Below are positions 3,901 through 38,253 of a DNA stretch of 64,000 nt, in pieces. The stretch lies in NCBI GenBank assembly GCA_964342355.1, contig CAYFFG010000004.1, forward strand, positions 154,975-218,974, in the 5' to 3' direction. Source of the DNA: an uncultured Hyphomonadaceae bacterium (GTDB lineage: Bacteria; Pseudomonadota; Alphaproteobacteria; Caulobacterales; Hyphomonadaceae). The position numbers and the translations under genes were made by a program. Within the stretch, counting starts at the first letter, position 1. Every line of letters starts with the position of its first letter. Below the pieces are notes generated by a model that saw nothing but the letters and a program-made list of their open reading frames with translations, searched no databases and had not been told where the DNA came from.

Positions 3901-4171
3901 AAATGGCTCAATGCCCACATTTCGGGTATTGAGTATGTTTTATCCGCCCAACGCAATCAAAAGTGAACGCCAAAGGCTGAAATTTTGGAATTCCTCGTCG
4001 CCTGTCTCTTTTCTCACAAGCAAAATTGCGCATAAATACCCATGAATGCGCAGCAAAAATATCTACAACAATATAGCTTGCGTAATTGAGGAAGGCACAT
4101 CAAACACTTTTTTCTGCGATTTTAGGAGCCTTTTTACGCTCACTTTGCGGAATTTCATTGGGAGAAATAAA

Positions 4172-5572
4172 ATGTTCCGTATGCTTGTTAACGGTGAACT
4201 TATCTCGTCATCTCAAGCGCTTGACGTGGTTAATCCGGCCACTGGAAAGCCCTTTGCACAGGCGGCGCGCGCTGATCTGGACTTGCTTAATCATGCCGTC
4301 GCCGCCGCACGTGACGCTTTCCCGGCATGGTCAGCGCTCAGCTTTGAAGAGCGTGGCGAATACCTGCGTAAACTGGCTGCTGCAATCGAAGAAAAGAAAG
4401 AGGATTTCGCACGCACGCTCACCCAGGAACAAGGCAAACCTTACAAACAGGCATTCGGCGAAACGCTTGGCGCAATCGGCACGCTGAAAGGCTGGTTTGT
4501 TATGTCCACGCCTTCCAAAACGCTGCGTGAAAACGAAAAAGAACGCGTCATCGAGCACTATACGCCACTCGGCGTTGTCGCCGCGATCACGCCATGGAAC
4601 TTCCCATTGGTCATTGCGACGAGCAAGATCGGCCCTGCTCTGATCGCTGGCAACACTGTCGTCCTCAAGCCTGCGCCAACGACACCGCTGACAACTTTGA
4701 TGATCGGCGAACTTGCCGCAGACATTCTACCCAAAGGTGTTCTCAACATTATTGCCGACGAAAACGAATTGGGCGGAGCGCTCAGCTCTCACCCGGATGT
4801 GGCAAAAGTCAGCTTCACCGGCTCCACCGCCACAGGCAAAAAGGTCATGCACAGCGCCGCTGACAGCCTGAAACGCCTGACACTTGAGCTTGGCGGCAAT
4901 GACGCAGCGATCCTCCTGGATGATGTTGATGTTGACGCAATTGCACCAAAACTCTTTGGCGCGGCGACATTGAACGCAGGTCAGGTCTGTCTTGCTGTTA
5001 AACGCGTTTATGCGCCACGCGAAAAATATGACCAGGTCTGTGACGCACTCGCCAAACTGGCAAATGAAGCCGTCGTCGACTCCGGTGACAATCAGGGCGC
5101 ACAGATCGGCCCAGTCCAAAACGCAATGCAGTTTGAGAAGCTCAAAGGCTTTCTGGAAGATGCCCGCCAAAACGGTAAAATCATCGCAGGCGGCGAAGCT
5201 ATGGATCGTGACGGCTACTTTATCCGTCCAACAATCGTACGCGACGTACCAGACGACGCACGCATCGTAAGAGAAGAACAGTTTGGCCCGATCCTTCCTG
5301 TTCTGGCCTATGACGACCTTGATGACGTGATCGCGCGCGCCAACGACTCCGAATACGGTCTTGGCGGCTCCGTCTGGTCTTCAGACATCGACAGAGCGCA
5401 GGAAATCGCCATGAAGATCGACAGCGGCACAGTCTGGGTCAACAAACACATTGACCTTCCGTTCGACGTTCCATTTGGCGGCGCCAAACAGTCAGGTATT
5501 GGCCGCGAAAAAGGTCAGGTCGGACTGGAAGAGTTCACCCAACCGAAAATTGTGAACATCTCGCTCGCTTAA
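4172..5572 (+). CDS. NAD(P)-dependent aldehyde dehydrogenase
   Basis: ITPWNFP, FTGST, LELGGND, catalytic Cys in GQVCLA, EEQFGP, PFGGAKQSGIGRE. ATG at 4172 follows a GGAG RBS. Confidence 0.95.
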   Translation: MFRMLVNGELISSSQALDVVNPATGKPFAQAARADLDLLNHAVAAARDAFPAWSALSFEERGEYLRKLAAAIEEKKEDFARTLTQEQGKPYKQAFGETLGAIGTLKGWFVMSTPSKTLRENEKERVIEHYTPLGVVAAITPWNFPLVIATSKIGPALIAGNTVVLKPAPTTPLTTLMIGELAADILPKGVLNIIADENELGGALSSHPDVAKVSFTGSTATGKKVMHSAADSLKRLTLELGGNDAAILLDDVDVDAIAPKLFGAATLNAGQVCLAVKRVYAPREKYDQVCDALAKLANEAVVDSGDNQGAQIGPVQNAMQFEKLKGFLEDARQNGKIIAGGEAMDRDGYFIRPTIVRDVPDDARIVREEQFGPILPVLAYDDLDDVIARANDSEYGLGGSVWSSDIDRAQEIAMKIDSGTVWVNKHIDLPFDVPFGGAKQSGIGREKGQVGLEEFTQPKIVNISLA

Positions 5573-16963: not shown

Positions 16964-16992
16964 TTGACCATTCATCCGTGCACGCATATCTC
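16964..16992 (+). promoter_or_regulatory. Sigma70-type promoter of metA
   Basis: TTGACC-N17-TATCTC; predicted TSS (~16998) coincides with the riboswitch 5' end. Confidence 0.6.
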
Positions 16993-16997
16993 AACTG

Positions 16998-17052
16998 CCG
17001 TGGTGATTTGGTCGGCCGGATTGCAGCCACGTTAAATAAGTCGCTAAAAAGC
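16998..17052 (+). ncRNA. SAM-II (SAM-alpha) riboswitch
   Basis: CGTGG-TGATTTG...TTGCAG-CCACG-TTAAATAAGTC-GCTAAA matches the metA-leader SAM-II consensus; directly upstream of metA. Confidence 0.9.
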
Positions 17053-17137
17053 CCTTGGATGAAGTTGCTCTTGTCCACCTCGGCGAAGACTTGTTTTTTT
17101 AATCCACGCCGATTTGTTTCTGACTTGGAGCTTTGTC

Positions 17138-21809: not shown

Positions 21810-23237
21810 TCAAGCGTCCGGATGCCTGACAACTTTGCCGGGGTTCATGCGATTTTCAGGATCGAGCGCTTTTTTAACAGCGCGCAACATATCCAGCTCA
21901 ACGGCGCTGACCCGTTCTGCAAGTTCGTCACGTTTTTGCACGCCGATCCCATGCTCAGCAGAGATAGATCCATTCATGCCGCTCACAACATCATGCACGG
22001 CTTTGGTCAGCACAGGGCCAAATTCCTTGGCAAACGCAACTTCCTCTGCGCCCTCTGGCGGAGCGACATTGTAATGCATATTCCCATCGCCAACATGGCC
22101 AAATGAAATGATATTCGCCTCAGGTGCGATCGATTTGACCGCAGCATCCGCTGTCCTGATAAACTCTGGCAAAGCTGAAACCGGGACCGAAACATCATGT
22201 TTGACGGCGCGCCCAAAGGCTTTTTCAGCAAGCGGCACACTTTCACGGATTTTCCAAATGCCGGCAGCCTGAGCATCTGTTTCAGCTAATACTCCGTTCG
22301 TTATGAGATCCGCACTAAGCGCTTTTTCAAACATAGCTTCGATAACGTCACGCGCACCTTCTTTGCGACCAAACGAAATCTCCATCAGAATGCGCCAGGG
22401 CGCTGGCTCGTCAGGCAGCGGATCGTGGATGTCTGGTATGTATTCTTTGACGAGTTCGACCGCATAGCTCGGCACCAATTCAAACGAGGTCACCGCACCG
22501 CCCGTTTCCGCCTTGGCTAGCGCAAGCAACTCCACCGCCTGAGATGGTGATTGCACGGACAGCCAGGAGACCGCCTTTAGCGCAGGCTTGGCAAACAGTT
22601 TGAGCGTGGCCCCAGTGATGACGCCAAGCGTGCCCTCAGCGCCGATGAATAACTGTTTGAGATCATAAGCCGTATTGTCTTTGCGTAGCCCCGTCAGTCC
22701 GTCCCAGATGCGCCCGTCAGCTGTGACAATTTCAAGCCCCAGCACCAGGTCACGCATCATCCCATACCGCAGCACCGCCACGCCGCCTGCATTTGTTGAG
22801 ATCAGGCCGCCAATCTGAGCCACACCTTCAGCGGCAAGAGATAGCGGAAATAACCGTTCCACCTCATCAGCGGCGTCCTGCACCTCTGTGAGGATGACCC
22901 CTGCATCAACAGTGATTGAATCATTGAGCACATCAATCGCGCGGATGTTTTTCATACGGGATAAAGACAGCAAAACGTCGCCATTAGGCAGTCCGCCAAG
23001 CACAAGTCCTGAATTACCGCCCTGAGGCGTCACAGACACTTTGTGTTCAGCACACAATGCCATGAAATCAGCCACTTCCTGTGTCGACGCAGGACGCGCC
23101 ACAAAAGGCGCATGCCCTTTCTCGCGGCCGCGCCAGTCCTCCAGAAAAGGCGCCATGTCTTCCGGTGTGTCGAGAAAGCCTTTTTCTCCCAGAAGAGATT
23201 TTGCTGATGACAAGAAAGCTTTGCTGGGTTGAGCCAT
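21810..23237 (-). CDS. FAD-binding oxidoreductase (D-2-hydroxyacid dehydrogenase, GlcD/D2HGDH family)
   Basis: PQGGNSGL, IGGLISTNAGG, LRKDNTAYDL, HDVSVP, FGHVGDGNMH, SAEHGIG. Confidence 0.93.
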   Translation of the reverse strand: MAQPSKAFLSSAKSLLGEKGFLDTPEDMAPFLEDWRGREKGHAPFVARPASTQEVADFMALCAEHKVSVTPQGGNSGLVLGGLPNGDVLLSLSRMKNIRAIDVLNDSITVDAGVILTEVQDAADEVERLFPLSLAAEGVAQIGGLISTNAGGVAVLRYGMMRDLVLGLEIVTADGRIWDGLTGLRKDNTAYDLKQLFIGAEGTLGVITGATLKLFAKPALKAVSWLSVQSPSQAVELLALAKAETGGAVTSFELVPSYAVELVKEYIPDIHDPLPDEPAPWRILMEISFGRKEGARDVIEAMFEKALSADLITNGVLAETDAQAAGIWKIRESVPLAEKAFGRAVKHDVSVPVSALPEFIRTADAAVKSIAPEANIISFGHVGDGNMHYNVAPPEGAEEVAFAKEFGPVLTKAVHDVVSGMNGSISAEHGIGVQKRDELAERVSAVELDMLRAVKKALDPENRMNPGKVVRHPDA

Positions 23238-23432
23238 ATCAAGTGTCCAAAAATTCAACCTTTGTCCCATCAATATTGAGTAGTGCCTGAAATAAGAAGC
23301 TTCTGCAAAACATTCGCGCTCCCCGAATAGGAAGCGGTATCAAATACACATAATCGCGATGGTATCACTTGCTTTCAGTGGTAAGCAGATAGATGTTGAG
23401 CGCGCTCATCGCCTGTCAGGAGTTGTCGAAAA

Positions 23433-23804
23433 TTGCGTATTTTGATCAGCCTCGTTTTGACTGTCGCCACCTCCGCATTGGCGCTGAGCGCGCAGGCGCA
23501 ATCTGACCGTCTGGTGTCTCAAAAGCGCGACCTTGCAGGCATACTTGGCGAAGTTCATTACATCCGAACAATTTGCAATGGGAAATCTGACCAATACTGG
23601 CGTGAATACATGCGCGATTTCTTAGAGCTAGAAGGCGATATTGCTGAGAACCGCTCTCTTTACATCAAGGCGTTCAACCGCGGTTACACATACCAATCAA
23701 ACCAAATCCGGTACTGTGATCGCTCAGCCGCTCAACTTGAAGTTAATCTTGCTAATAAAGGTCGCAAACTCGCCGAAGCGATCGCTCAAAATTATCTTCA
23801 TTAG
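23433..23804 (+). CDS. TIGR02301-family exported protein
   Basis: Signal peptide; LAGILGEVHYIRTIC, WREYM..LLELE pattern (here WREYMRDFLELE), AFNRGY. Confidence 0.85.
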   Translation: MRILISLVLTVATSALALSAQAQSDRLVSQKRDLAGILGEVHYIRTICNGKSDQYWREYMRDFLELEGDIAENRSLYIKAFNRGYTYQSNQIRYCDRSAAQLEVNLANKGRKLAEAIAQNYLH

Positions 23805-23990
23805 AAAAACCCTCCATATGAGGGGATGTTCCATCACTATTAGATGTTATTGTCTGACGAAATGGTTATTTCGACAAGATCTCCTGTATGTATCGGCCTG
23901 TTGAGAATCAATTTGCTATGTTAATTTTCAACTCAAGATAAAGAGACTCACGTCTCGACACAGAAAATAATAGGGTACTGGAATTTCAGT

Positions 23991-25883
23991 TTGTTGAACC
24001 AATCTGAACATCGCAGTGAAGCAATCACTCCCCCAACACAAGGGCGAGTGTCCAGTATTAAAGCCGCTTTTGAGATTGTACGCGCCACTATTTTCGGCGG
24101 CCTGCCACAGCTGATCTTGAAAGAACTTTCACCTTCCCAAGAAAACGAAATTGAAGATCAGAAAATCCGTGCATTGTCTGCTCGGTATTTTGTTGTTTAT
24201 GTATTTTTTATTCTGACAATTGGGGTCACTCTGGCCACTATGCTGCCAGACACAGATAAACGCATGATTCCACTGGCGCTTATCTGGATAGCAAGCTGTA
24301 TCCCTGCGTTTCACATCATGCACAAGCGCACGCGTGATACCTTCCCCGCATTTGTCGTTATTTTGATTAGTCTAGTGTTTTTCGGGACTGTGATTATCGC
24401 GAACACGGGGCGATTTCCGCCCGGATTGATCATATTGCCGCCCATTTCCCTTTACTCATTCGTCATGTTCACCGGGAAACGCCAAGCTGTTGTCATTGTT
24501 GGCACTTTCATTCTTGCCGCGATGGCGTTGATATTTTCCACCCAGCCACAAGTGCCATTCGCGTCAAATTTGGCGCCCGCATCTGGAAAAACCATCGCGG
24601 TTTTCATCGGCATTTCAATGATGCTGTTCGCAATGCTGATCCGGCTTATTCGCGTGCAGCAGAAGGTGGTGACGTCCTTCTTAAAAAGCCAGAATGCGCA
24701 ATTGGTCAGCCTGTCTAATGCGCGCAATGATTTCATCGCCAATGTCAGTCACGAACTACGTACGCCCATGAACGCCATTTTAGGCGCAGTAGATGTTTTA
24801 GAGCGCAGCGAAGACGCGACCTTAAAATCTGAAATGTTGAATATCACGCGCGACGCTGCTCGCGGCCTGCTCGCGCAGTTAGAAGACGTTCTGGATCTGG
24901 CTAAACTGGAAGCGAACACACTTGTTCTGTCACCATCGCCCACAAATGTTCAGCTGTTCATACGTCGCACAATAGCCCTGTGGGAAAACCAACTGATCGA
25001 CAAACGATTAAAGTGTGATCTGGATTTGCCAAGCGAGACAAATGAAAATCTCGAGCTTGATCAGGTGCGAGTTCAACAGATTTTGTCCACGCTAATCGCA
25101 AATGCGATCAAACACACGCACATCGGCGGCATAACGATTGCCGTCAGGCGAACAGAAGATGTCATTAACAGCAACTATGTTAAGCTTGAAATCACCGTCT
25201 CAGACACAGGCGATGGCGTTGCATGGCGTGATCGTGACCAGTTGTTTCAGCCTATGGCGTCAGTGTCCGGTTCAAAGCAAGTTCAGCATTCCGGGTTAGG
25301 CTTGTCGCTTGGCAGACGGCTCGCACGCGCCATGAAGGGGGATTTGAGGCTCTTGGACAGGACGCCGGGCGCCCATTTCCAGCTCACTTTGCTTGCTAAA
25401 AAATCGACTCAAACACTTGGCGTCTCACAAGCTATCACACCACAAAATCAAGAAAATCTGGGCGCGTTGCAGACATCTGACGGTGCGCCTAAAAAGGCGC
25501 ACAAGCGGATCCTTTGTGTCGACGATCATCCGGCAAACCTGAGGATTGTATCGTTACTTTTGGGAGAATTGGATTTTGACCTGGATGTCGCCATGTCCGG
25601 TAAAGAAGCGATTGAATTATGCAATTCGCGCCCACCATATGACGCCATTCTGATGGATATTATGATGCCTGAAATGAACGGTATCGAGACCACGCGCCAT
25701 ATTCAAAATCTGCAATCTCCAAACGCGCATGTGCCAATCATCGCGCTGACAGCAAATGTGAATCCGGAACAGGTGTCATCCTATCTGACAGCTGGCATGC
25801 AAGGCGTTGTCGCCAAGCCGATTGAATCACGTTTGTTGATTGTCGAAATTGAGCGCGCACTGCGCCTGCAACGTGCCAGCTAA
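23991..25883 (+). CDS. Membrane-bound hybrid sensor histidine kinase/receiver
   Basis: Multi-TM N-terminus; SHELRTPMNAI, NAIKHT, DTGDG, SGLGLS; receiver VDD...MDIMMP...KP. Confidence 0.93.
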   Translation: MLNQSEHRSEAITPPTQGRVSSIKAAFEIVRATIFGGLPQLILKELSPSQENEIEDQKIRALSARYFVVYVFFILTIGVTLATMLPDTDKRMIPLALIWIASCIPAFHIMHKRTRDTFPAFVVILISLVFFGTVIIANTGRFPPGLIILPPISLYSFVMFTGKRQAVVIVGTFILAAMALIFSTQPQVPFASNLAPASGKTIAVFIGISMMLFAMLIRLIRVQQKVVTSFLKSQNAQLVSLSNARNDFIANVSHELRTPMNAILGAVDVLERSEDATLKSEMLNITRDAARGLLAQLEDVLDLAKLEANTLVLSPSPTNVQLFIRRTIALWENQLIDKRLKCDLDLPSETNENLELDQVRVQQILSTLIANAIKHTHIGGITIAVRRTEDVINSNYVKLEITVSDTGDGVAWRDRDQLFQPMASVSGSKQVQHSGLGLSLGRRLARAMKGDLRLLDRTPGAHFQLTLLAKKSTQTLGVSQAITPQNQENLGALQTSDGAPKKAHKRILCVDDHPANLRIVSLLLGELDFDLDVAMSGKEAIELCNSRPPYDAILMDIMMPEMNGIETTRHIQNLQSPNAHVPIIALTANVNPEQVSSYLTAGMQGVVAKPIESRLLIVEIERALRLQRAS

Positions 25884-25900
25884 TCAATCGTTGTGATCTA

Positions 25901-26117
25901 TTCCCGCCCCACAAAACTCACAAGTTTTGTAGCGACCGGACAGTCACAGGTTCAAAAACCATCCGGCCGCCACACGGAAAGCGAAATCGCTCCGAGCGGG
26001 GGTAATCAAGGGGCTGGTTGTTATCAGACTTCACCGAGTGGGAGGAGAATTATGTCCACGAGGACAGCCTGATAACATTCGCTTTCCTTATGTGTTCAAA
26101 CGCACAGAGTTTGCGTT
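25901..26117. ncRNA. Unclassified structured RNA-like element (strand undetermined)
   Basis: Perfect 10-bp (25976-85/26078-87) and 9-bp (26019-27/26069-77) long-range helices plus several local hairpins in a convergent intergenic gap. Confidence 0.5.
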
Positions 26118-26131
26118 TCCGTCGCAGAAAA

Positions 26132-26995
26132 TCAGATTTCTTCAGAATTTTTTTCCGACACCTTTTCCGCGGTGTTTTCCACGGTGTCTGTTTCTGGTTT
26201 GGAACGCTTCAAAGTTGCTCCGCACCGACGACAAAAAATCGCGTCTGGGTCATGCCGTGTCAGGGAACAAGACTGGCACTCCATTTTTATCTTTTCATCG
26301 CCCGAGACGATCGACTGCAACATGCGGACAAACAGCGTCAGCCCCAAGAGCATGATGATGATCGCAAGCACACGCCCGCCCTGCCCCTGCATTAAGATAT
26401 CGCCATAGCCTGTCGTGGTGAGACTGGTCACAGTGAAATATAGCGCATCCAGTTGTGTCTTGATTTGAGTGTCAGGCTCATTGACCTGATTGACGTAAAC
26501 CAACGCCGACATAATGAACAAAAACACGACGAAATTCGTCACCCGGTCGATCACCATACGGTGTCGGGCTAAAAAACCAGAAATTTCCTCTGCGCGCGCC
26601 AGAAATGTGAAGGCCCGCACAATTCGAATGATACGCAACACCCTTAAGAAAATGAGATTCTCAAAGAAGAACGGCGCCACAAGCGTCAATACGACAAGCA
26701 CGTCCGCGATATTGTGGAGCTTGCGAAAAAACAGCAGTTTCTTGGGCGCAATATAAAGGCGCGCCGCAAAATCAATTGCGATATAACACGCGATAAAGAT
26801 GTCGATAGGCACCGCCCAAGAATGGCGCAGCGTGTGTTGCCAGGAGTGAAACGGCTCCCAAAGAAAAAAGGCGATCGACACAAAGTCGAGCACCAATAGC
26901 GACCAACGGAACAGAAACGGCGCTTTTCCTTCGCCTTCATAAAGCCAGCGCAAAATATGCTTTACGCCGATTTTCCTGATTTTTCCGTCACCCAT
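26132..26995 (-). CDS. Potassium channel / ion transport protein with C-terminal zinc ribbon
   Basis: Selectivity filter TTTGYGD, S4-like LRVLRIIRIVR, CQSC...CRRC. Confidence 0.92.
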   Translation of the reverse strand: MGDGKIRKIGVKHILRWLYEGEGKAPFLFRWSLLVLDFVSIAFFLWEPFHSWQHTLRHSWAVPIDIFIACYIAIDFAARLYIAPKKLLFFRKLHNIADVLVVLTLVAPFFFENLIFLRVLRIIRIVRAFTFLARAEEISGFLARHRMVIDRVTNFVVFLFIMSALVYVNQVNEPDTQIKTQLDALYFTVTSLTTTGYGDILMQGQGGRVLAIIIMLLGLTLFVRMLQSIVSGDEKIKMECQSCSLTRHDPDAIFCRRCGATLKRSKPETDTVENTAEKVSEKNSEEI

Positions 26996-27129
26996 TATTA
27001 CCTCAACTTACACCAATCATCTCACAAATAAGCAGATTTTGCGATTTTGTGGACTCATCCAATGGCCGCACGCCCGCGCACAGAAGATTGAGATGGCGAA
27101 ATGCGGCAGGACATATTATCTAGCTCTTT

Positions 27130-27951
27130 ATGAATGATCCGATTTTACTAAGAGACCGCGTTGTCTTGCGCGTGACCGGTGAGGACGCCTCCAGCTTTCT
27201 GGAAGGCCTCATCACATCATCCATTGTGAATTTGCAAGCAGGCGAAGCAGGATACGGCGCCCTGTTGATGCCTCAGGGCAAGATCATCTGCGACATGATC
27301 GTGCTTAAACGCGACGACGGATTCTTGCTGGACGTGCCCGCCCAGGCAGATGAGTCACTGTTTAAGCGCCTGAAAATGTTTCGTCTGAAATCTAAGGTCG
27401 ATATCGAACTTGCAGACAATCTGCATGTCTATGTGAATGTCGAGGATGGTTTTGCCGACCCCAGATCGCCAGACATGCCCAAGCGCATAATCACAACACA
27501 AATGGATTGGGAGTTGGCGTCTGAGCGCCATTATCACTTAAAGCGCATTCAAGCGTGTGTTCCTGAACAGGGGTATGATTTTGGCGAAAACGAGGTTTTC
27601 CCATCTGACATCAATATGGACCTCCTTAACGGCGTAAACTTCAAAAAAGGATGCTTTGTCGGCCAGGAAGTTGTCTCACGCATGAAACGCCGCGGCACCA
27701 CCCGACGCCGCACGCTGGCTTTCCGATTTGAGCAAGGCGCGCCCGCACCTGCCAGCGCATTGATGGCGAATGACGTTCAGGTCGGCGAAATCTCATCTGT
27801 CCAGGACGAATATGCTCTTGCCCGCGTGCGTTTGGATCGTCTGATCAAAGCGCAGGAAGAAACGGATTTGAAGCTGACAGCCGAAAATCGCGACGCTGAC
27901 CTGATTGAACATGATTGGCTTGCAGAACAAATTGCGATCCTGCAAAGCTAA
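27130..27951 (+). CDS. ygfZ: Folate-binding Fe-S cluster repair protein YgfZ
   Basis: KKGCFVGQEVVSR signature; LLMPQGKI. Confidence 0.94.
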   Translation: MNDPILLRDRVVLRVTGEDASSFLEGLITSSIVNLQAGEAGYGALLMPQGKIICDMIVLKRDDGFLLDVPAQADESLFKRLKMFRLKSKVDIELADNLHVYVNVEDGFADPRSPDMPKRIITTQMDWELASERHYHLKRIQACVPEQGYDFGENEVFPSDINMDLLNGVNFKKGCFVGQEVVSRMKRRGTTRRRTLAFRFEQGAPAPASALMANDVQVGEISSVQDEYALARVRLDRLIKAQEETDLKLTAENRDADLIEHDWLAEQIAILQS

Positions 27952-27977
27952 TCAAAACGAATCAGGAACATCATACC

Positions 27978-28574
27978 ATGAGCAATGAAATTGATCCCAC
28001 AGAGCCGCCCTGTGGCTGGGCGCCATTGGGCGATGAGCTGTATCGCAGTTATCATGACCATGAATGGGGCGTTCCTGAACGCGATAGCCGCGCGCTGTGG
28101 GAAAAGTTCCAGCTAGACGGACATCAAGCAGGCCTCTCCTGGATTACAATTCTGCGCAAGCGAGAGACGATGCGGGATGAATTTGACGGTTTTAATCCTG
28201 AAAAAGTCGCACGCTGGGATGATAAACGCATTGAAAGAGCGATGCAGAACCCAGGCATTATCAGAAGTCCCAAGAAAATAGCAGCCACAATCAGTAACGC
28301 GCAGATCTATCTGGACATGCGCGACAAAGGCGAAGATTTTGCGCAATATCTCTGGAATTTTGTTGATGGCGTCCCGATACAAAATTCACTGGATCATTGG
28401 AAAAATGCGCCAGCCAAAACAGCGCTTTCAGAAACCATTGCAAAAGACATGAAAAAACGCGGTTTCAAGTTCTGCGGACCTGTTATTGTCTATGCGGCTA
28501 TGCAAGCAGTAGGCATGGTCAATGACCATGAAGTGCGCTGTCCCCGCCACGCACAGATAAAAGCGATGGGATAA
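27978..28574 (+). CDS. tag: DNA-3-methyladenine glycosylase I
   Basis: YHDHEWGVP, QAGLSWITILRKR, GFKFCGP, MQAVGMVNDH..C. Confidence 0.95.
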   Translation: MSNEIDPTEPPCGWAPLGDELYRSYHDHEWGVPERDSRALWEKFQLDGHQAGLSWITILRKRETMRDEFDGFNPEKVARWDDKRIERAMQNPGIIRSPKKIAATISNAQIYLDMRDKGEDFAQYLWNFVDGVPIQNSLDHWKNAPAKTALSETIAKDMKKRGFKFCGPVIVYAAMQAVGMVNDHEVRCPRHAQIKAMG

Positions 28575-28610
28575 CCTATTCGCCCAACCCAACAACAGGA
28601 GCCAACCTGA

Positions 28611-28802
28611 ATGTTGAAAGTCATATTATTCGCTATATCAGTTACCACCCTTTCGGCATGTGCGATTGGCAAAGAAGCTCACACCAATGCCGCACTTAAA
28701 GAATGCCGTCATGAAGTCGGCGTAGACGAACGTCGCGCATGCGAACAACAAGTGCGTGAAGAACGTCAGGCGCGAGACGAGAAAGAACGCTATTCCAAAT
28801 GA
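28611..28802 (+). CDS. Small lipoprotein (63 aa)
   Basis: AGGAG RBS, signal peptide II with lipobox LSAC, two additional Cys. Confidence 0.8.
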   Translation: MLKVILFAISVTTLSACAIGKEAHTNAALKECRHEVGVDERRACEQQVREERQARDEKERYSK

Positions 28803-29002
28803 AATTGAAAATCCTCATCTCATGCGCCGCTCTTGCCGTTACAGTCAGCGGATGCGCCACCAGCGCTTTGACTGAAGAACAAAAGAATGCCGCGATCGCA
28901 AAATGCTTCAAGGATTTTCAGAATTATCCGGCTGCGCGTGAAGCCTGCATCAATCGCGCGCGCACCGCAGACAAGAAACCAACCGAGGCGAACGCTTCCT
29001 GA
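28799..29002 (+). CDS. Small lipoprotein (67 aa)
   Basis: ATGA overlap with the previous gene, lipobox VSGC, two additional Cys. Confidence 0.8.
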   Translation: MKLKILISCAALAVTVSGCATSALTEEQKNAAIAKCFKDFQNYPAAREACINRARTADKKPTEANAS

Positions 29003-29012
29003 TCAACGAAAA

Positions 29013-29040
29013 ACGGGGTGGAGCAATTGCTCCACCCCGT
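29013..29040. terminator. Bidirectional terminator (perfect palindrome)
   Basis: ACGGGGTGGAGC-AATT-GCTCCACCCCGT. Confidence 0.8.
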
Positions 29041-29074
29041 AAATCACCCAAGTCGCCTTGAACGGGACTTTTTA

Positions 29075-29224
29075 CTATTCAAAAGACTCATCACCAAAGA
29101 TATCGCCCCAAAGAGCGTGATGACTTGCCTTGTATGCCGCCACACAACCTGCAAAAATTGCAGCACCGAGAACAATCCACAGCACGACTGGTTGCTGAGC
29201 AGCTTCCACCATCTTTTCGATCAT
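29075..29224 (-). CDS. Small single-pass membrane protein (49 aa)
   Basis: Hand translation MIEKMVEAAQQPVVLWIVLGAAIFAGCVAAYKASHHALWGDIFGDESFE; GAGAG upstream; terminator downstream; not in ORF track. Confidence 0.65.
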   Translation of the reverse strand: MIEKMVEAAQQPVVLWIVLGAAIFAGCVAAYKASHHALWGDIFGDESFE

Positions 29225-29403: not shown

Positions 29404-30027
29404 ATGTCCAAAACACCGTTAAAATCATCAAACGCACCGCGCGTCTGGCAGCGAATGTTATCAGGACGCAGACTTGACCTGGTCAATCCATCACCTCTTG
29501 ATATCGAGATTGAAGACATAGCGCATGGCCTTGCTCGGGTTGCGCGCTGGAATGGACAGACGTCAGGCGATTATGTTTTTTCAGTCGCTCAACACTGCGT
29601 CATCGTTGAATTTATTTGTCAGCATACCGCGCCTCGACTTAGCCCCGCTGAAAAGCTGATGGCGCTTTTGCATGATGCGCCAGAATATGTTGTCGGCGAT
29701 ATGATATCTCCCTTTAAAGCTGTCTTGGGAGACGGGTATCGCGATATAGAAAACCGTTTAGAAACAGCTATTCACATGCGGTTTGGCTTGCCGTCCAAGA
29801 CACCGGCAAAATTAAAAAAAATCATCAAACGGGCTGACTTGATTTGCGCATATTATGAAGCAGTCATGCTTGCAGGGTTTTCCTCTGAGGAAGCGGAAAA
29901 ACTATTTGGCGCGCCGCCAACGGGCGTTGAAGTGCATGTGACGCCACTGGATACGCCACATGCACAACAAGTCTTCCTTGATCGTTTCTTCCAACTGCTA
30001 CATGAGTTGGATCAGGCCAACACCTAA
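29404..30027 (+). CDS. HD-domain hydrolase (YfbR-like 5'-deoxynucleotidase)
   Basis: DIAHGLARVARWNGQT, SVAQH, LLHDAPEY..GD, KRAD. Confidence 0.92.
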   Translation: MSKTPLKSSNAPRVWQRMLSGRRLDLVNPSPLDIEIEDIAHGLARVARWNGQTSGDYVFSVAQHCVIVEFICQHTAPRLSPAEKLMALLHDAPEYVVGDMISPFKAVLGDGYRDIENRLETAIHMRFGLPSKTPAKLKKIIKRADLICAYYEAVMLAGFSSEEAEKLFGAPPTGVEVHVTPLDTPHAQQVFLDRFFQLLHELDQANT

Positions 30028-37197: not shown

Positions 37198-38157
37198 TTA
37201 AACGTCTTTGTCTTCCACAGACGACACACTGTCTGTGTCTGTCAAAGAGACGTTTTGAAAGCCTCTGATGCTGGCCTGCATCTTTTGAGCTTTCGCCTGA
37301 CGCACAGTGGTCCACTCGCGCCCTTGAGGGAAGCGATAGAAAATGTGCGTACCAATCGTTGTGGTGTGGATCAGGCCCGAGCGCCAGTAAGGCGACACGT
37401 AATTTGTGTGATAGTGGGTAGCGCCTTCTGTCAGCGGCTTTTCGCTAAGGCCCATCATGACATAGCCCGCCACTTCAACCGCACGCGCCCAGGCGTCGCC
37501 ACGCGGCTTTCTGCTCATGGACCCGTCACACGTAAAGGAGAACTGACACCCAGTTACTCGGTGCGCGCCTTCATACACCACATCACAGATACTGTCCGGA
37601 TAATGTTCGGACTCAACGCGGTTTTGAATAACCTCAGCCACAGCCAGCTGTCCTGTCAGGTCTTCGCTACGCGCTTCGTAATAGATCGCTTCAGACAGAC
37701 AATAGTGCTGAACACGCATCGTCTCAGCGTCTTGCACGGTCTGGCGCGGCGAAAGATTCGAAAGGATATCTATAAAGGAAGACTCTTCATCGTCAGACGG
37801 CGAATACGTCAAGCTTGCCAGCATTGTGTCCGGCGCAGCTGTCGCCGACACCTGTTCGCGCCAAGGCTTGGTAATGTCCAACGCAGCAACACCGATCTGC
37901 CCGTCCTGAGACTCGCTGATCAACGTGGCAAGTTGAGTGGCCTGAGCCAGAAAAGCTTCTTCGTCTTTTTGCACACTTGCGTGGTCCGCAACCAGCGGCG
38001 CACCGTAAGCGGCGGCGGCAGCGGCGCATGCAATTCCTACCGCGCGCTGCTGCATTAAACGTTTTTCTTCTGCCGACATCTTAATCAATCCGACAACGAC
38101 GTTTACAAAAAACGCCAGACAGGTCGAAACGATACGCAATGTCGCTTTCGAAAACAT
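37198..38157 (-). CDS. sleB: Cell wall hydrolase, SleB family
   Basis: CLSEAIYYEARSE, AVAEVIQNRV, CQFSFTCDG, GATHYHTNYVSPYW, IGTHIFY; start position uncertain. Confidence 0.9.
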   Translation of the reverse strand: MFSKATLRIVSTCLAFFVNVVVGLIKMSAEEKRLMQQRAVGIACAAAAAAYGAPLVADHASVQKDEEAFLAQATQLATLISESQDGQIGVAALDITKPWREQVSATAAPDTMLASLTYSPSDDEESSFIDILSNLSPRQTVQDAETMRVQHYCLSEAIYYEARSEDLTGQLAVAEVIQNRVESEHYPDSICDVVYEGAHRVTGCQFSFTCDGSMSRKPRGDAWARAVEVAGYVMMGLSEKPLTEGATHYHTNYVSPYWRSGLIHTTTIGTHIFYRFPQGREWTTVRQAKAQKMQASIRGFQNVSLTDTDSVSSVEDKDV

Positions 38158-38253
38158 TAACAACAAAGAACCCCAGCCTCAGCCTGATAACACTTAAATC
38201 GCCGTTACAGGCTTCGATCACTCCCCTAGAAGAACGACCAGCGCGCGACGAAT

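Follow-up and report, generated by a model that had tools for sequence, protein, structure and literature searches.

We describe here a structured intergenic element in a 64,000-nucleotide stretch of DNA from an uncultured Hyphomonadaceae bacterium, the whole of which we refer to as the window. The element occupies a 248-bp gap (25884-26131) between two convergent genes, a hybrid kinase (23991-25883, plus strand) with HisKA, HATPase_c and Response_reg domains, and a channel gene (26132-26995, minus strand) with Ion_trans/Ion_trans_2 domains. Both flanking genes terminate at the gap, and there is thus no gene downstream of it on either strand. A first-pass annotation, made from the sequence alone, had described the gap as an RNA-like element, which proves right in kind but missed the strand, the C-rich loops (the plus strand reads GGGAGGAG), the promoter and the family context. 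We propose, with moderate confidence, that the gap is a small RNA (sRNA) gene on the minus strand and a member of a family that we describe below from the Hirschia clade.

The gap is built around a single inverted repeat, the left arm of which is split by 33 nucleotides (nt). Taken together, GGAAAGCGAA (25976-85) and TGTTATCAG (26019-27) have the strand at 26069-26087 (CTGATAACATTCGCTTTCC) as their exact reverse complement, which confirms the first-pass observation of a 19-nt strand pairing with two separate segments, and a repeat search extends the pairing to one helix of 15 nt, at 87% complementarity, and another of 12 nt, at 92%. The ACAC (25972-75) and GTGT (26092-95) motifs are also present and can extend the outer helix as had been suggested, although a 4-nt bulge lies between them and the main helix. 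That the gap is more structured than a terminator needs to be holds up as well, as its fold surpasses that of dinucleotide shuffles on each strand: the whole gap gives -78.7 kcal/mol on the plus strand (z -2.4, with 5 of 200 shuffles equally good) and -90.6 kcal/mol on the minus strand (z -4.3, with none of 200 equally good), and for the core (25930-26094) the z-scores are -5.8 on the minus strand and -3.1 on the plus strand. Among the individual hairpins reported earlier, those at 25911-30, 25932-70, 26053-66 and 26098-117 are real, but that at 26029-44 is weak and forms on the plus strand only; on the minus strand this segment is a mostly unpaired C-rich loop. The element also remains unclassified, in that Rfam 15 gives no match in the gap, either at gathering thresholds across the whole window or at E<=10 across 25700-26400.

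Read on the minus strand, the predicted sRNA spans 25905-26094, a length of about 165-190 nt with putative ends. By analogy with the ortholog in lineage L001 (see below), its 5' end would lie near 26094, at the base of the P1 helix as extended by ACAC; the position of the 3' end is uncertain, falling at about 25930 if it follows hairpin A and at about 25905 if it follows hairpin B. The closing helix P1, recovered by both the repeat search and folding, has the 5' arm GGAAAGCGAA at 26078-26087, extendable by ACAC at 26092-26095, and the 3' arm UUCGCUUUCC at 25976-25985, extendable by GUGU at 25972-25975. If the RNA reaches that far, there is a rival pairing for the 3' arm, between CCCCCGC and GGGGCGGG at about 25902-25909. 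P2 is a 12-bp helix with one U-G pair, likewise found by repeat search and folding, with its 5' arm UGUUAUCAGGCU at 26066-26077 and its 3' arm AGUCUGAUAACA at 26019-26030, and its pairing probability is about 1 in all of the constructs folded. In the apical region of P2 lies C-rich loop 1 (UUCUCCUCCCACU, 26037-26049), which includes the anti-Shine-Dalgarno-like CUCCUCCC and has a mean unpaired probability of 0.68; CTCCTCCC is unique to this loop within the 64-kb window, with both strands counted. C-rich segment 2 (CCAGCCCCUUGAUUACCCCCGCU, 25995-26017) is situated within the 33 nt that interrupt the left arm of the inverted repeat, is unpaired with a probability of 0.69-0.74 when P1 is formed, and is followed by a mini-hairpin at 25988-25998. 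A small inner hairpin, GUCC-UCGU-GGAC (26053-26066), is evident from both sequence and folding.

Two further hairpins lie towards the presumptive 3' end. Hairpin A (25932-25970, minus strand) has a 14-bp stem and could belong to the sRNA as its 3' portion, act as a terminator that the kinase gene also uses, or both, but no T-run follows the stem and it is therefore not a canonical terminator. Hairpin B (ACAAAACU-N4-AGUUUUGU, 25911-25930) is a symmetric A/U-rich hairpin and possibly a weak bidirectional terminator. A consensus scan of the gap identifies neither a sigma-70-type promoter nor a canonical terminator site. A contig from a strain about 96% identical (run X6) has seven differences, two of which are reported. 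One is an A to T change at 26061, within the loop of the small hairpin at 26053-66, and the other, at 26093, falls in the ACAC extension or the 5' end; neither of these tests P1 or P2.

The closest relatives of the channel protein are 63-70% identical and come from Hirschia and related lineages, and we obtained the locus from nine further Hirschia-clade lineages: L001 (grouped with L018 and L019), L014 (grouped with L015), L016, L017, L020, L021, L022, L023 and L024. A scan of JGI metagenome contigs yielded only 3 loci. The gene order of the window (channel, gap, hybrid kinase and DUF2385, the last at 23433-23804) is repeated in L020, L021, L022 and L024, and in L001, L014, L016, L017 and L023 the kinase is absent and the channel gene converges directly on DUF2385. 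The element is kept with either the kinase or DUF2385 as the convergent gene, and it thus stays with the channel gene. We also note that the window lacks a small hypothetical gene that the relatives have between DUF2385 and an FAD-oxidase gene.

The gap of the window does not align with those of the relatives using blastn, nhmmer or MAFFT, but the architecture is shared. On the channel strand, the gaps of all nine relatives contain 2-4 long hairpins with C-rich apical loops (C5-7 or CUCCC), examples of which include AGUCCCCCCUUGUG, GUGUCCCCCCUAUG, GAUCUCCCUCCCA, AUUCCCCCCUCA, UACCUCCCCCUU and UUUUCUCCCCUCCC, and no G-rich loops are seen on that strand in any of the nine. Hairpins that combine a C-rich loop with a stem of 13 or more pairs are confined, in each 4-9-kb locus, to the gap and to the channel strand. 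The content and orientation of the C-rich loops are conserved, but the stems are not. In L001, L022 and L024 there is in addition a long-range closing helix around the inner hairpins, with a purine-rich 5' arm at the very start of the RNA, and the split inverted repeat of the window is of the same design, with P1 closing the domain, P2 stacked on P1, and the C-rich regions displayed. Eight of the relatives' loci have no Rfam match in their gaps at E<=5, the sole match being a weak sX6 elsewhere, and in the loci of Hyphomonas, Henriciella and Hyphococcus, which are more distant, the channel gene is followed by different genes and C-loop hairpins are lacking.

Seven of the lineages share a two-block, promoter-like motif facing into the gap. 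In the window, GCGACGG (26119-26125, minus strand) lies 7 nt past the channel stop codon in the manner of a -35 element, and a 16-nt spacer separates it from CGTT (26099-26102), which resembles the -10 of promoters for extracytoplasmic function (ECF) sigma factors; the exact pattern CGACGG-N16-CGTT spans 26099-26124. GCGACGG-N16-CGTT is also present in L001, L014, L016, L022, L023 and L024, and the length of the spacer is invariant although its sequence is not conserved and the gaps are otherwise unalignable. In L022 the motif straddles the channel stop codon, and in the window and the other five lineages it is positioned directly past it. In sigma-EcfG/sigma-T promoters the -10 block is likewise CGTT, set off by a spacer of 15-17 nt (PMC5869019). 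We nonetheless reject a sigma-EcfG promoter, in that the -35 block is GCGACGG rather than GGAAC in all seven lineages, and the strict GGAAC-N16-CGTT pattern does not occur anywhere in the window. Further exact matches to CGACGG-N16-CGTT are found on the minus strand inside coding regions of L016 (6192-6217) and L022 (314-339); these are probably there by chance, but could be other members of one regulon.

The remaining three relatives, L017, L020 and L021, carry a different motif right before the first hairpin, CTTGGAA-N15-CTTAGAT (at about 4889-4917 in L017 and about 3870-3898 in L020 and L021), which we take to resemble sigma-32-type promoters. Promoters of this type have the form CTTGAAA ... 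CCCCATNT in E. coli and CTTG-N17-18-CYTATNT in alphaproteobacteria. The occurrence of two types of motif at one syntenic locus suggests that the putative promoter has been replaced.

The L001-type gap is transcribed, and is found in seven metatranscriptome runs from three studies. The longest contigs, those of X9 (depth 63.5) and X10 (depth 23.3), span L001 4896-5193, and the others correspond to 4909-5121 (X11, depth 6.85), 4916-5080 (X12, depth 7.1), 4914-5077 (X13, depth 3.9), 4944-5117 (X14, depth 6.5) and 4897-5082 (X15, depth 3.41). Depth is zero on the channel coding sequence (3992-4852) and also, outside the last 44 nt of the gene, on DUF2385, except for two fragments of about 18 nt from one chimeric X13 contig, a profile that DNA contamination cannot account for. 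The RNA starts 44 nt past the channel stop codon, and its 5' edges at 4896/4897 are 5-6 nt past CGTT (4888-4891). The 3' edges at 5117/5121 come after the T-run behind the last C-loop hairpin (5061-5104). The transcript of this orthologous gap is discrete and abundant.

Four lines of evidence agree in pointing to the channel strand, the minus strand of the window, as the RNA strand. First, the promoter-like motifs are oriented for it. Second, there are T-runs behind the last hairpin on this strand in L001, L017, L020 and L021. Third, the fold z-scores are better on the channel strand in all ten lineages (-2.8 to -6.4, as against -0.3 to -3.8 on the other), as is the minimum free energy of the whole gap, which is lower on the channel strand in ten of ten. 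Fourth, a comparison of L020 and L021, which are 85% identical, shows that seven of 44 stem pairs have changed, on one side each, and that none is broken; all seven changes leave G-U pairs on the channel strand, where the opposite strand would have A-C mismatches.

These considerations bear directly on a model in which the plus strand is the functional one, the element then being part of the 3' untranslated region (3' UTR) of the hybrid kinase gene, or an sRNA derived from it (with DUF2385 taking this role in the relatives without the kinase). The G-rich, GGA-rich loops such as GGGAGGAG could serve as a CsrA-type decoy, or CAGCCUGAUAACAUUCGCU could act as antisense to the start regions at 29450-29465 and 38180-38192. 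The plus strand does itself fold better than shuffles (z -2.4 to -3.1), nearly every C-rich loop reads as a GGA-containing loop on the opposite strand, the 19-mer has exact 16-nt and 13-nt complements beside two start codons in the window, and the contig of X9 and X10 extends into the convergent gene. We nevertheless regard this configuration as unlikely. The z-scores favour the channel strand throughout, the seven L020-L021 changes would all disrupt pairing on the other strand, the conserved promoter-like motifs and the T-run terminators face the channel strand, the element adjoins the channel gene regardless of which gene converges on it, and the matches to start regions are absent in the relatives.

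A second possibility is that the gap contains only the passive 3'-end structures of two convergent genes, acting as terminators or as stabilisers against exonucleases, and that the stable RNA is a functionless, decay-resistant by-product. The position between convergent genes fits such a model, hairpins A and B and that at 26098-26117 resemble weak terminators, and the last hairpin directly adjoins the stop codon of the kinase gene in L022 and L024. However, in L001 the RNA reaches a depth of 63.5 at the same time as the channel messenger RNA (mRNA) is undetectable, and it starts 44 nt past the stop codon, right behind the conserved two-block motif. The conservation of C-rich loop content and orientation in the face of changing stems is also difficult to reconcile with passive structures, as is the lack of any terminator-like site in the consensus scan of the window gap, and we find this explanation improbable.

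We therefore favour a stand-alone sRNA, and the configuration that we envisage is as follows. Transcription of the minus strand would start near 26094, about 5 nt past GCGACGG-N16-CGTT (26125-26099), a promoter-like motif that is probably served by an alternative, ECF-type (stress) sigma factor. The RNA would run for about 165-190 nt and act in trans, and would fold with P1 (GGAAAGCGAA/UUCGCUUUCC) stacked on the 12-bp P2 so as to display UUCUCCUCCCACU and CCAGCCCCUUGAUUACCCCCGCU. These C-rich loops are proposed to act as seeds for pairing with mRNA leaders, at stretches that are G-rich or Shine-Dalgarno-like, and this pairing would alter the translation or the stability of the target mRNAs. 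We propose a base-pairing sRNA because the C-rich loops are conserved and the stems are not, and because there are precedents among sRNAs with C-rich loops; our confidence in the mechanism is lower than that in the presence of an sRNA gene.

Several observations weigh against an sRNA of this kind. The homology of the window RNA to those of the relatives rests on position, motif and architecture and not on alignable sequence. C-rich segment 2, although largely unpaired when P1 is formed, is unpaired with a probability of only 0.39-0.47 in longer constructs, in which GGGGCGGG (about 25902-25909) competes for it, and can thus be sequestered; the window RNA has only one motif complementary to a Shine-Dalgarno sequence, and no canonical terminator follows its hairpins. 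The substitution argument comes from two sequences with one-sided G-U changes and no compensatory double changes. The contig of X9 and X10 enters the convergent DUF2385 gene by 44 nt, and the assembled contigs (Logan) are directionless, such that the strand of the RNA is deduced from the other evidence. Finally, the metatranscriptome from the same sample as the window barely covers the genome of the organism and has nothing on 22272-29213, and we found no RNA run that contains either the window gap or that of L020.

A variant in which the RNA is again a structured, clade-specific product, with its promoter swapped between two types of stress sigma factor, differs in how it would work, and it draws in part on matches to the helix arm elsewhere in the window. 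A 16/16 match to the 5' arm of the helix (AGCGAATGTTATCAGG) is situated at 29450-29465 on the plus strand, across the ATG (29455) of a YfbR-like HD hydrolase gene, and a 13/13 match (TGTTATCAGGCTG) at 38180-38192 on the minus strand, in the leader of a Hydrolase_2 cell-wall hydrolase gene (ATG at about 38157), and both are in mRNA sense beside probable start codons. Allowing up to three mismatches, there are 3 matches where 0.43 are expected, a number reached by one of 100 shuffles, and TGTTATCAG occurs four times in the window where 0.4 are expected. One form of this model is that the seed lies within the closing helix and is auto-inhibited: the 5' arm AGCGAAUGUUAUCAGGCUG would copy the start regions of the genes at 29455 and near 38157, and the buried 3' arm would pair with these two mRNAs only once the helix opens. 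In a different form, the poly-C loops would titrate a protein, with no pairing to mRNA. Neither L017 nor L021 conserves the link of the 16-mer to the start of the HD gene, and none of the loci of the relatives contains the core 10-mer. The arm matches may be due to chance, or may reflect a lineage-specific relation as target or mimic, and we consider the variant as a whole to be doubtful.

Two other classes of explanation fare considerably worse. In one, the gap is a mobile or repetitive element, either a miniature inverted-repeat transposable element (MITE) or a repetitive extragenic palindromic (REP) sequence, or else it encodes a small protein. The inverted repeat with its split arm is reminiscent of the former, and for the latter there is a 15-codon open reading frame (ORF) on the minus strand (MLSGCPRGHNSPPTR, preceded by AAGGAAAG) that starts in the 5' arm and has a Shine-Dalgarno-like AAGGA 6 nt before its ATG (26078-26076). 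The first-pass annotation had put forward multi-copy behaviour as a way of refuting an RNA element, and we observe none: blastn and pattern searches find no second copy of the gap in the window, only the 16-nt and 13-nt partial matches, and in metagenome runs X1 and X2, where the genome is present at 8-27x depth, only the contig of the locus itself aligns to the gap (X1 having been checked to 80% likeness). Runs X1-X5 carry identical fragments only. The element is moreover at the same position in ten lineages, and the small ORFs of the relatives vary in presence, length and sequence, with five lineages having none at the 5' end; we reject a conserved small ORF, as none is kept across the family, and hold this class of explanation to be very improbable. 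The remaining suggestion, raised at first pass as a possible switch, that the gap is a cis-acting riboswitch or structural switch is scarcely tenable in spite of the multi-helix junction and the alternative pairings GGCTG/CAGCC and CCCCCGC with GGGGCGGG, since a convergent gap has nothing downstream to control on either strand, no Rfam riboswitch matches at E<=10, the relatives share no junction or core sequence, and the GGCTG/CAGCC pairing is without counterpart in them.

As an sRNA with C-rich loops the element has several parallels, of which the closest in lineage is GsrN of Caulobacter crescentus. GsrN is a general-stress sRNA in which six tandem C residues in a hairpin loop pair with G-tracts of mRNA leaders, those of katG and osrP among them (PMC5869019; bioRxiv 10.1101/344820), and BLASTn matches to it are reported within Caulobacteraceae only (PMC5869019). 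The RNA described here is from a related alphaproteobacterial lineage, there are 5-7 tandem C residues in the loops of most of the relatives, and the CGTT block of the window with its 16-nt spacer fits the form of sigma-T/EcfG promoters. However, the -35 block is GCGACGG and not the GGAAC of a GsrN-type promoter, the window RNA is longer, and its family has 2-3 C-rich regions, often a closing helix, and a location beside a channel gene. GsrN exposes its tandem C residues in the loop of a 5' hairpin; the relatives have C5-7 loops, and in the window CUCCUCCC and CCCCC lie in partly exposed regions, at a different position within the RNA. There are no sigma, NepR or PhyR genes in the 4-9-kb loci of the relatives.

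The cuckoo family (alpha-r14 / CcsR1-4 / RSs0680) of Rhizobiales and Rhodobacterales offers a second comparison. These RNAs have 2-4 adjacent, simple hairpins of 24-50 nt with variable stems and no multiloop, every loop contains the C-rich anti-Shine-Dalgarno motif CCUCCUCCC, and CcsR is driven by an RpoHI/HII promoter (PMC4615179). The sigma-32-like motif of L017, L020 and L021 may be a parallel to the latter. The window motif CUCCUCCC has eight of the nine bases of CCUCCUCCC, but occurs once, together with two plain C4-5 stretches, and the loops of the relatives are mostly C5-7 or CUCCC. In L017 and L021 the fold is a row of simple hairpins, and L020 is close to this, whereas a long-range closing helix or a multiloop is seen in the window, L001, L022 and L024. 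We reject membership of the cuckoo RNAs, as CCUCCUCCC is not in every loop and there is no match to an Rfam model; multiloops occur in some of the lineages.

The same principle of a C-rich loop is found further afield. The sRNAs sX13 of Xanthomonas, the 6C sRNA of Mycobacterium and Streptomyces, and RsaE/RoxS and RNAIII of Firmicutes are described as using CCCC or UCCC loops to bind G-rich sites at or near ribosome-binding sites, much as we propose for the window RNA, although these are from unrelated phyla, have no homology to the window element in sequence or structure and give no Rfam match in it. In its genomic arrangement the element is also similar to type I 3'-UTR sRNAs such as DapZ and MicL, which are transcribed from a promoter of their own located in the 3'-terminal region of a coding gene: the promoter-like motif is right after the channel coding sequence, overlapping its end in L022, and the RNA runs through the 3' region of the gene. 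It differs in that the upstream channel mRNA appears not to be co-expressed. The element is best filed as a new family of an already known kind, that of sRNAs with C-rich loops, and is set apart from GsrN by the form of its promoter-like motif.

If this assignment is correct, the element represents an undescribed sRNA family in marine Hyphomonadaceae of the Hirschia clade, a group without characterised riboregulators; a literature search returned no paper naming both Hirschia and sRNA. At least one member of the family is among the few transcripts of its organism that can be detected in ocean metatranscriptomes. The family would provide an independent case of the pairing of C-rich loops with G-rich targets and a natural example of fast sequence turnover under a conserved architecture, together with the replacement of a promoter at a syntenic sRNA locus, where an ECF-like motif in some lineages stands against a sigma-32-like one in others. 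Searches with GCGACGG-N16-CGTT could help to find the regulon of an uncharacterised sigma factor, although general concepts of RNA regulation would be unchanged by the window sRNA.

Three other features of the window are noteworthy. Its sole Rfam match is a SAM_alpha riboswitch (RF00521) at 16990-17068 on the plus strand (80 bits, E 2e-16), the presence of which marks the organism as an alphaproteobacterium. Towards its C-terminus the channel protein has a set of residues (C240, C243, H248, D251, C255 and C258) that do not vary among nine channel proteins of the Hirschia clade and that form a CxxC ... CxxC pattern, which suggests a zinc-ribbon-like module at the C-terminus of an Ion_trans channel. 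Lastly, two stretches of 35-44 nt, at 29662-29705 and 25646-25688, find matches of 85-93% identity in many contigs of high depth whose flanks are unrelated, from several metagenomes and one metatranscriptome (X7), and these are probably highly conserved coding motifs, of the HD hydrolase and of the receiver domain, that are common to abundant other organisms.

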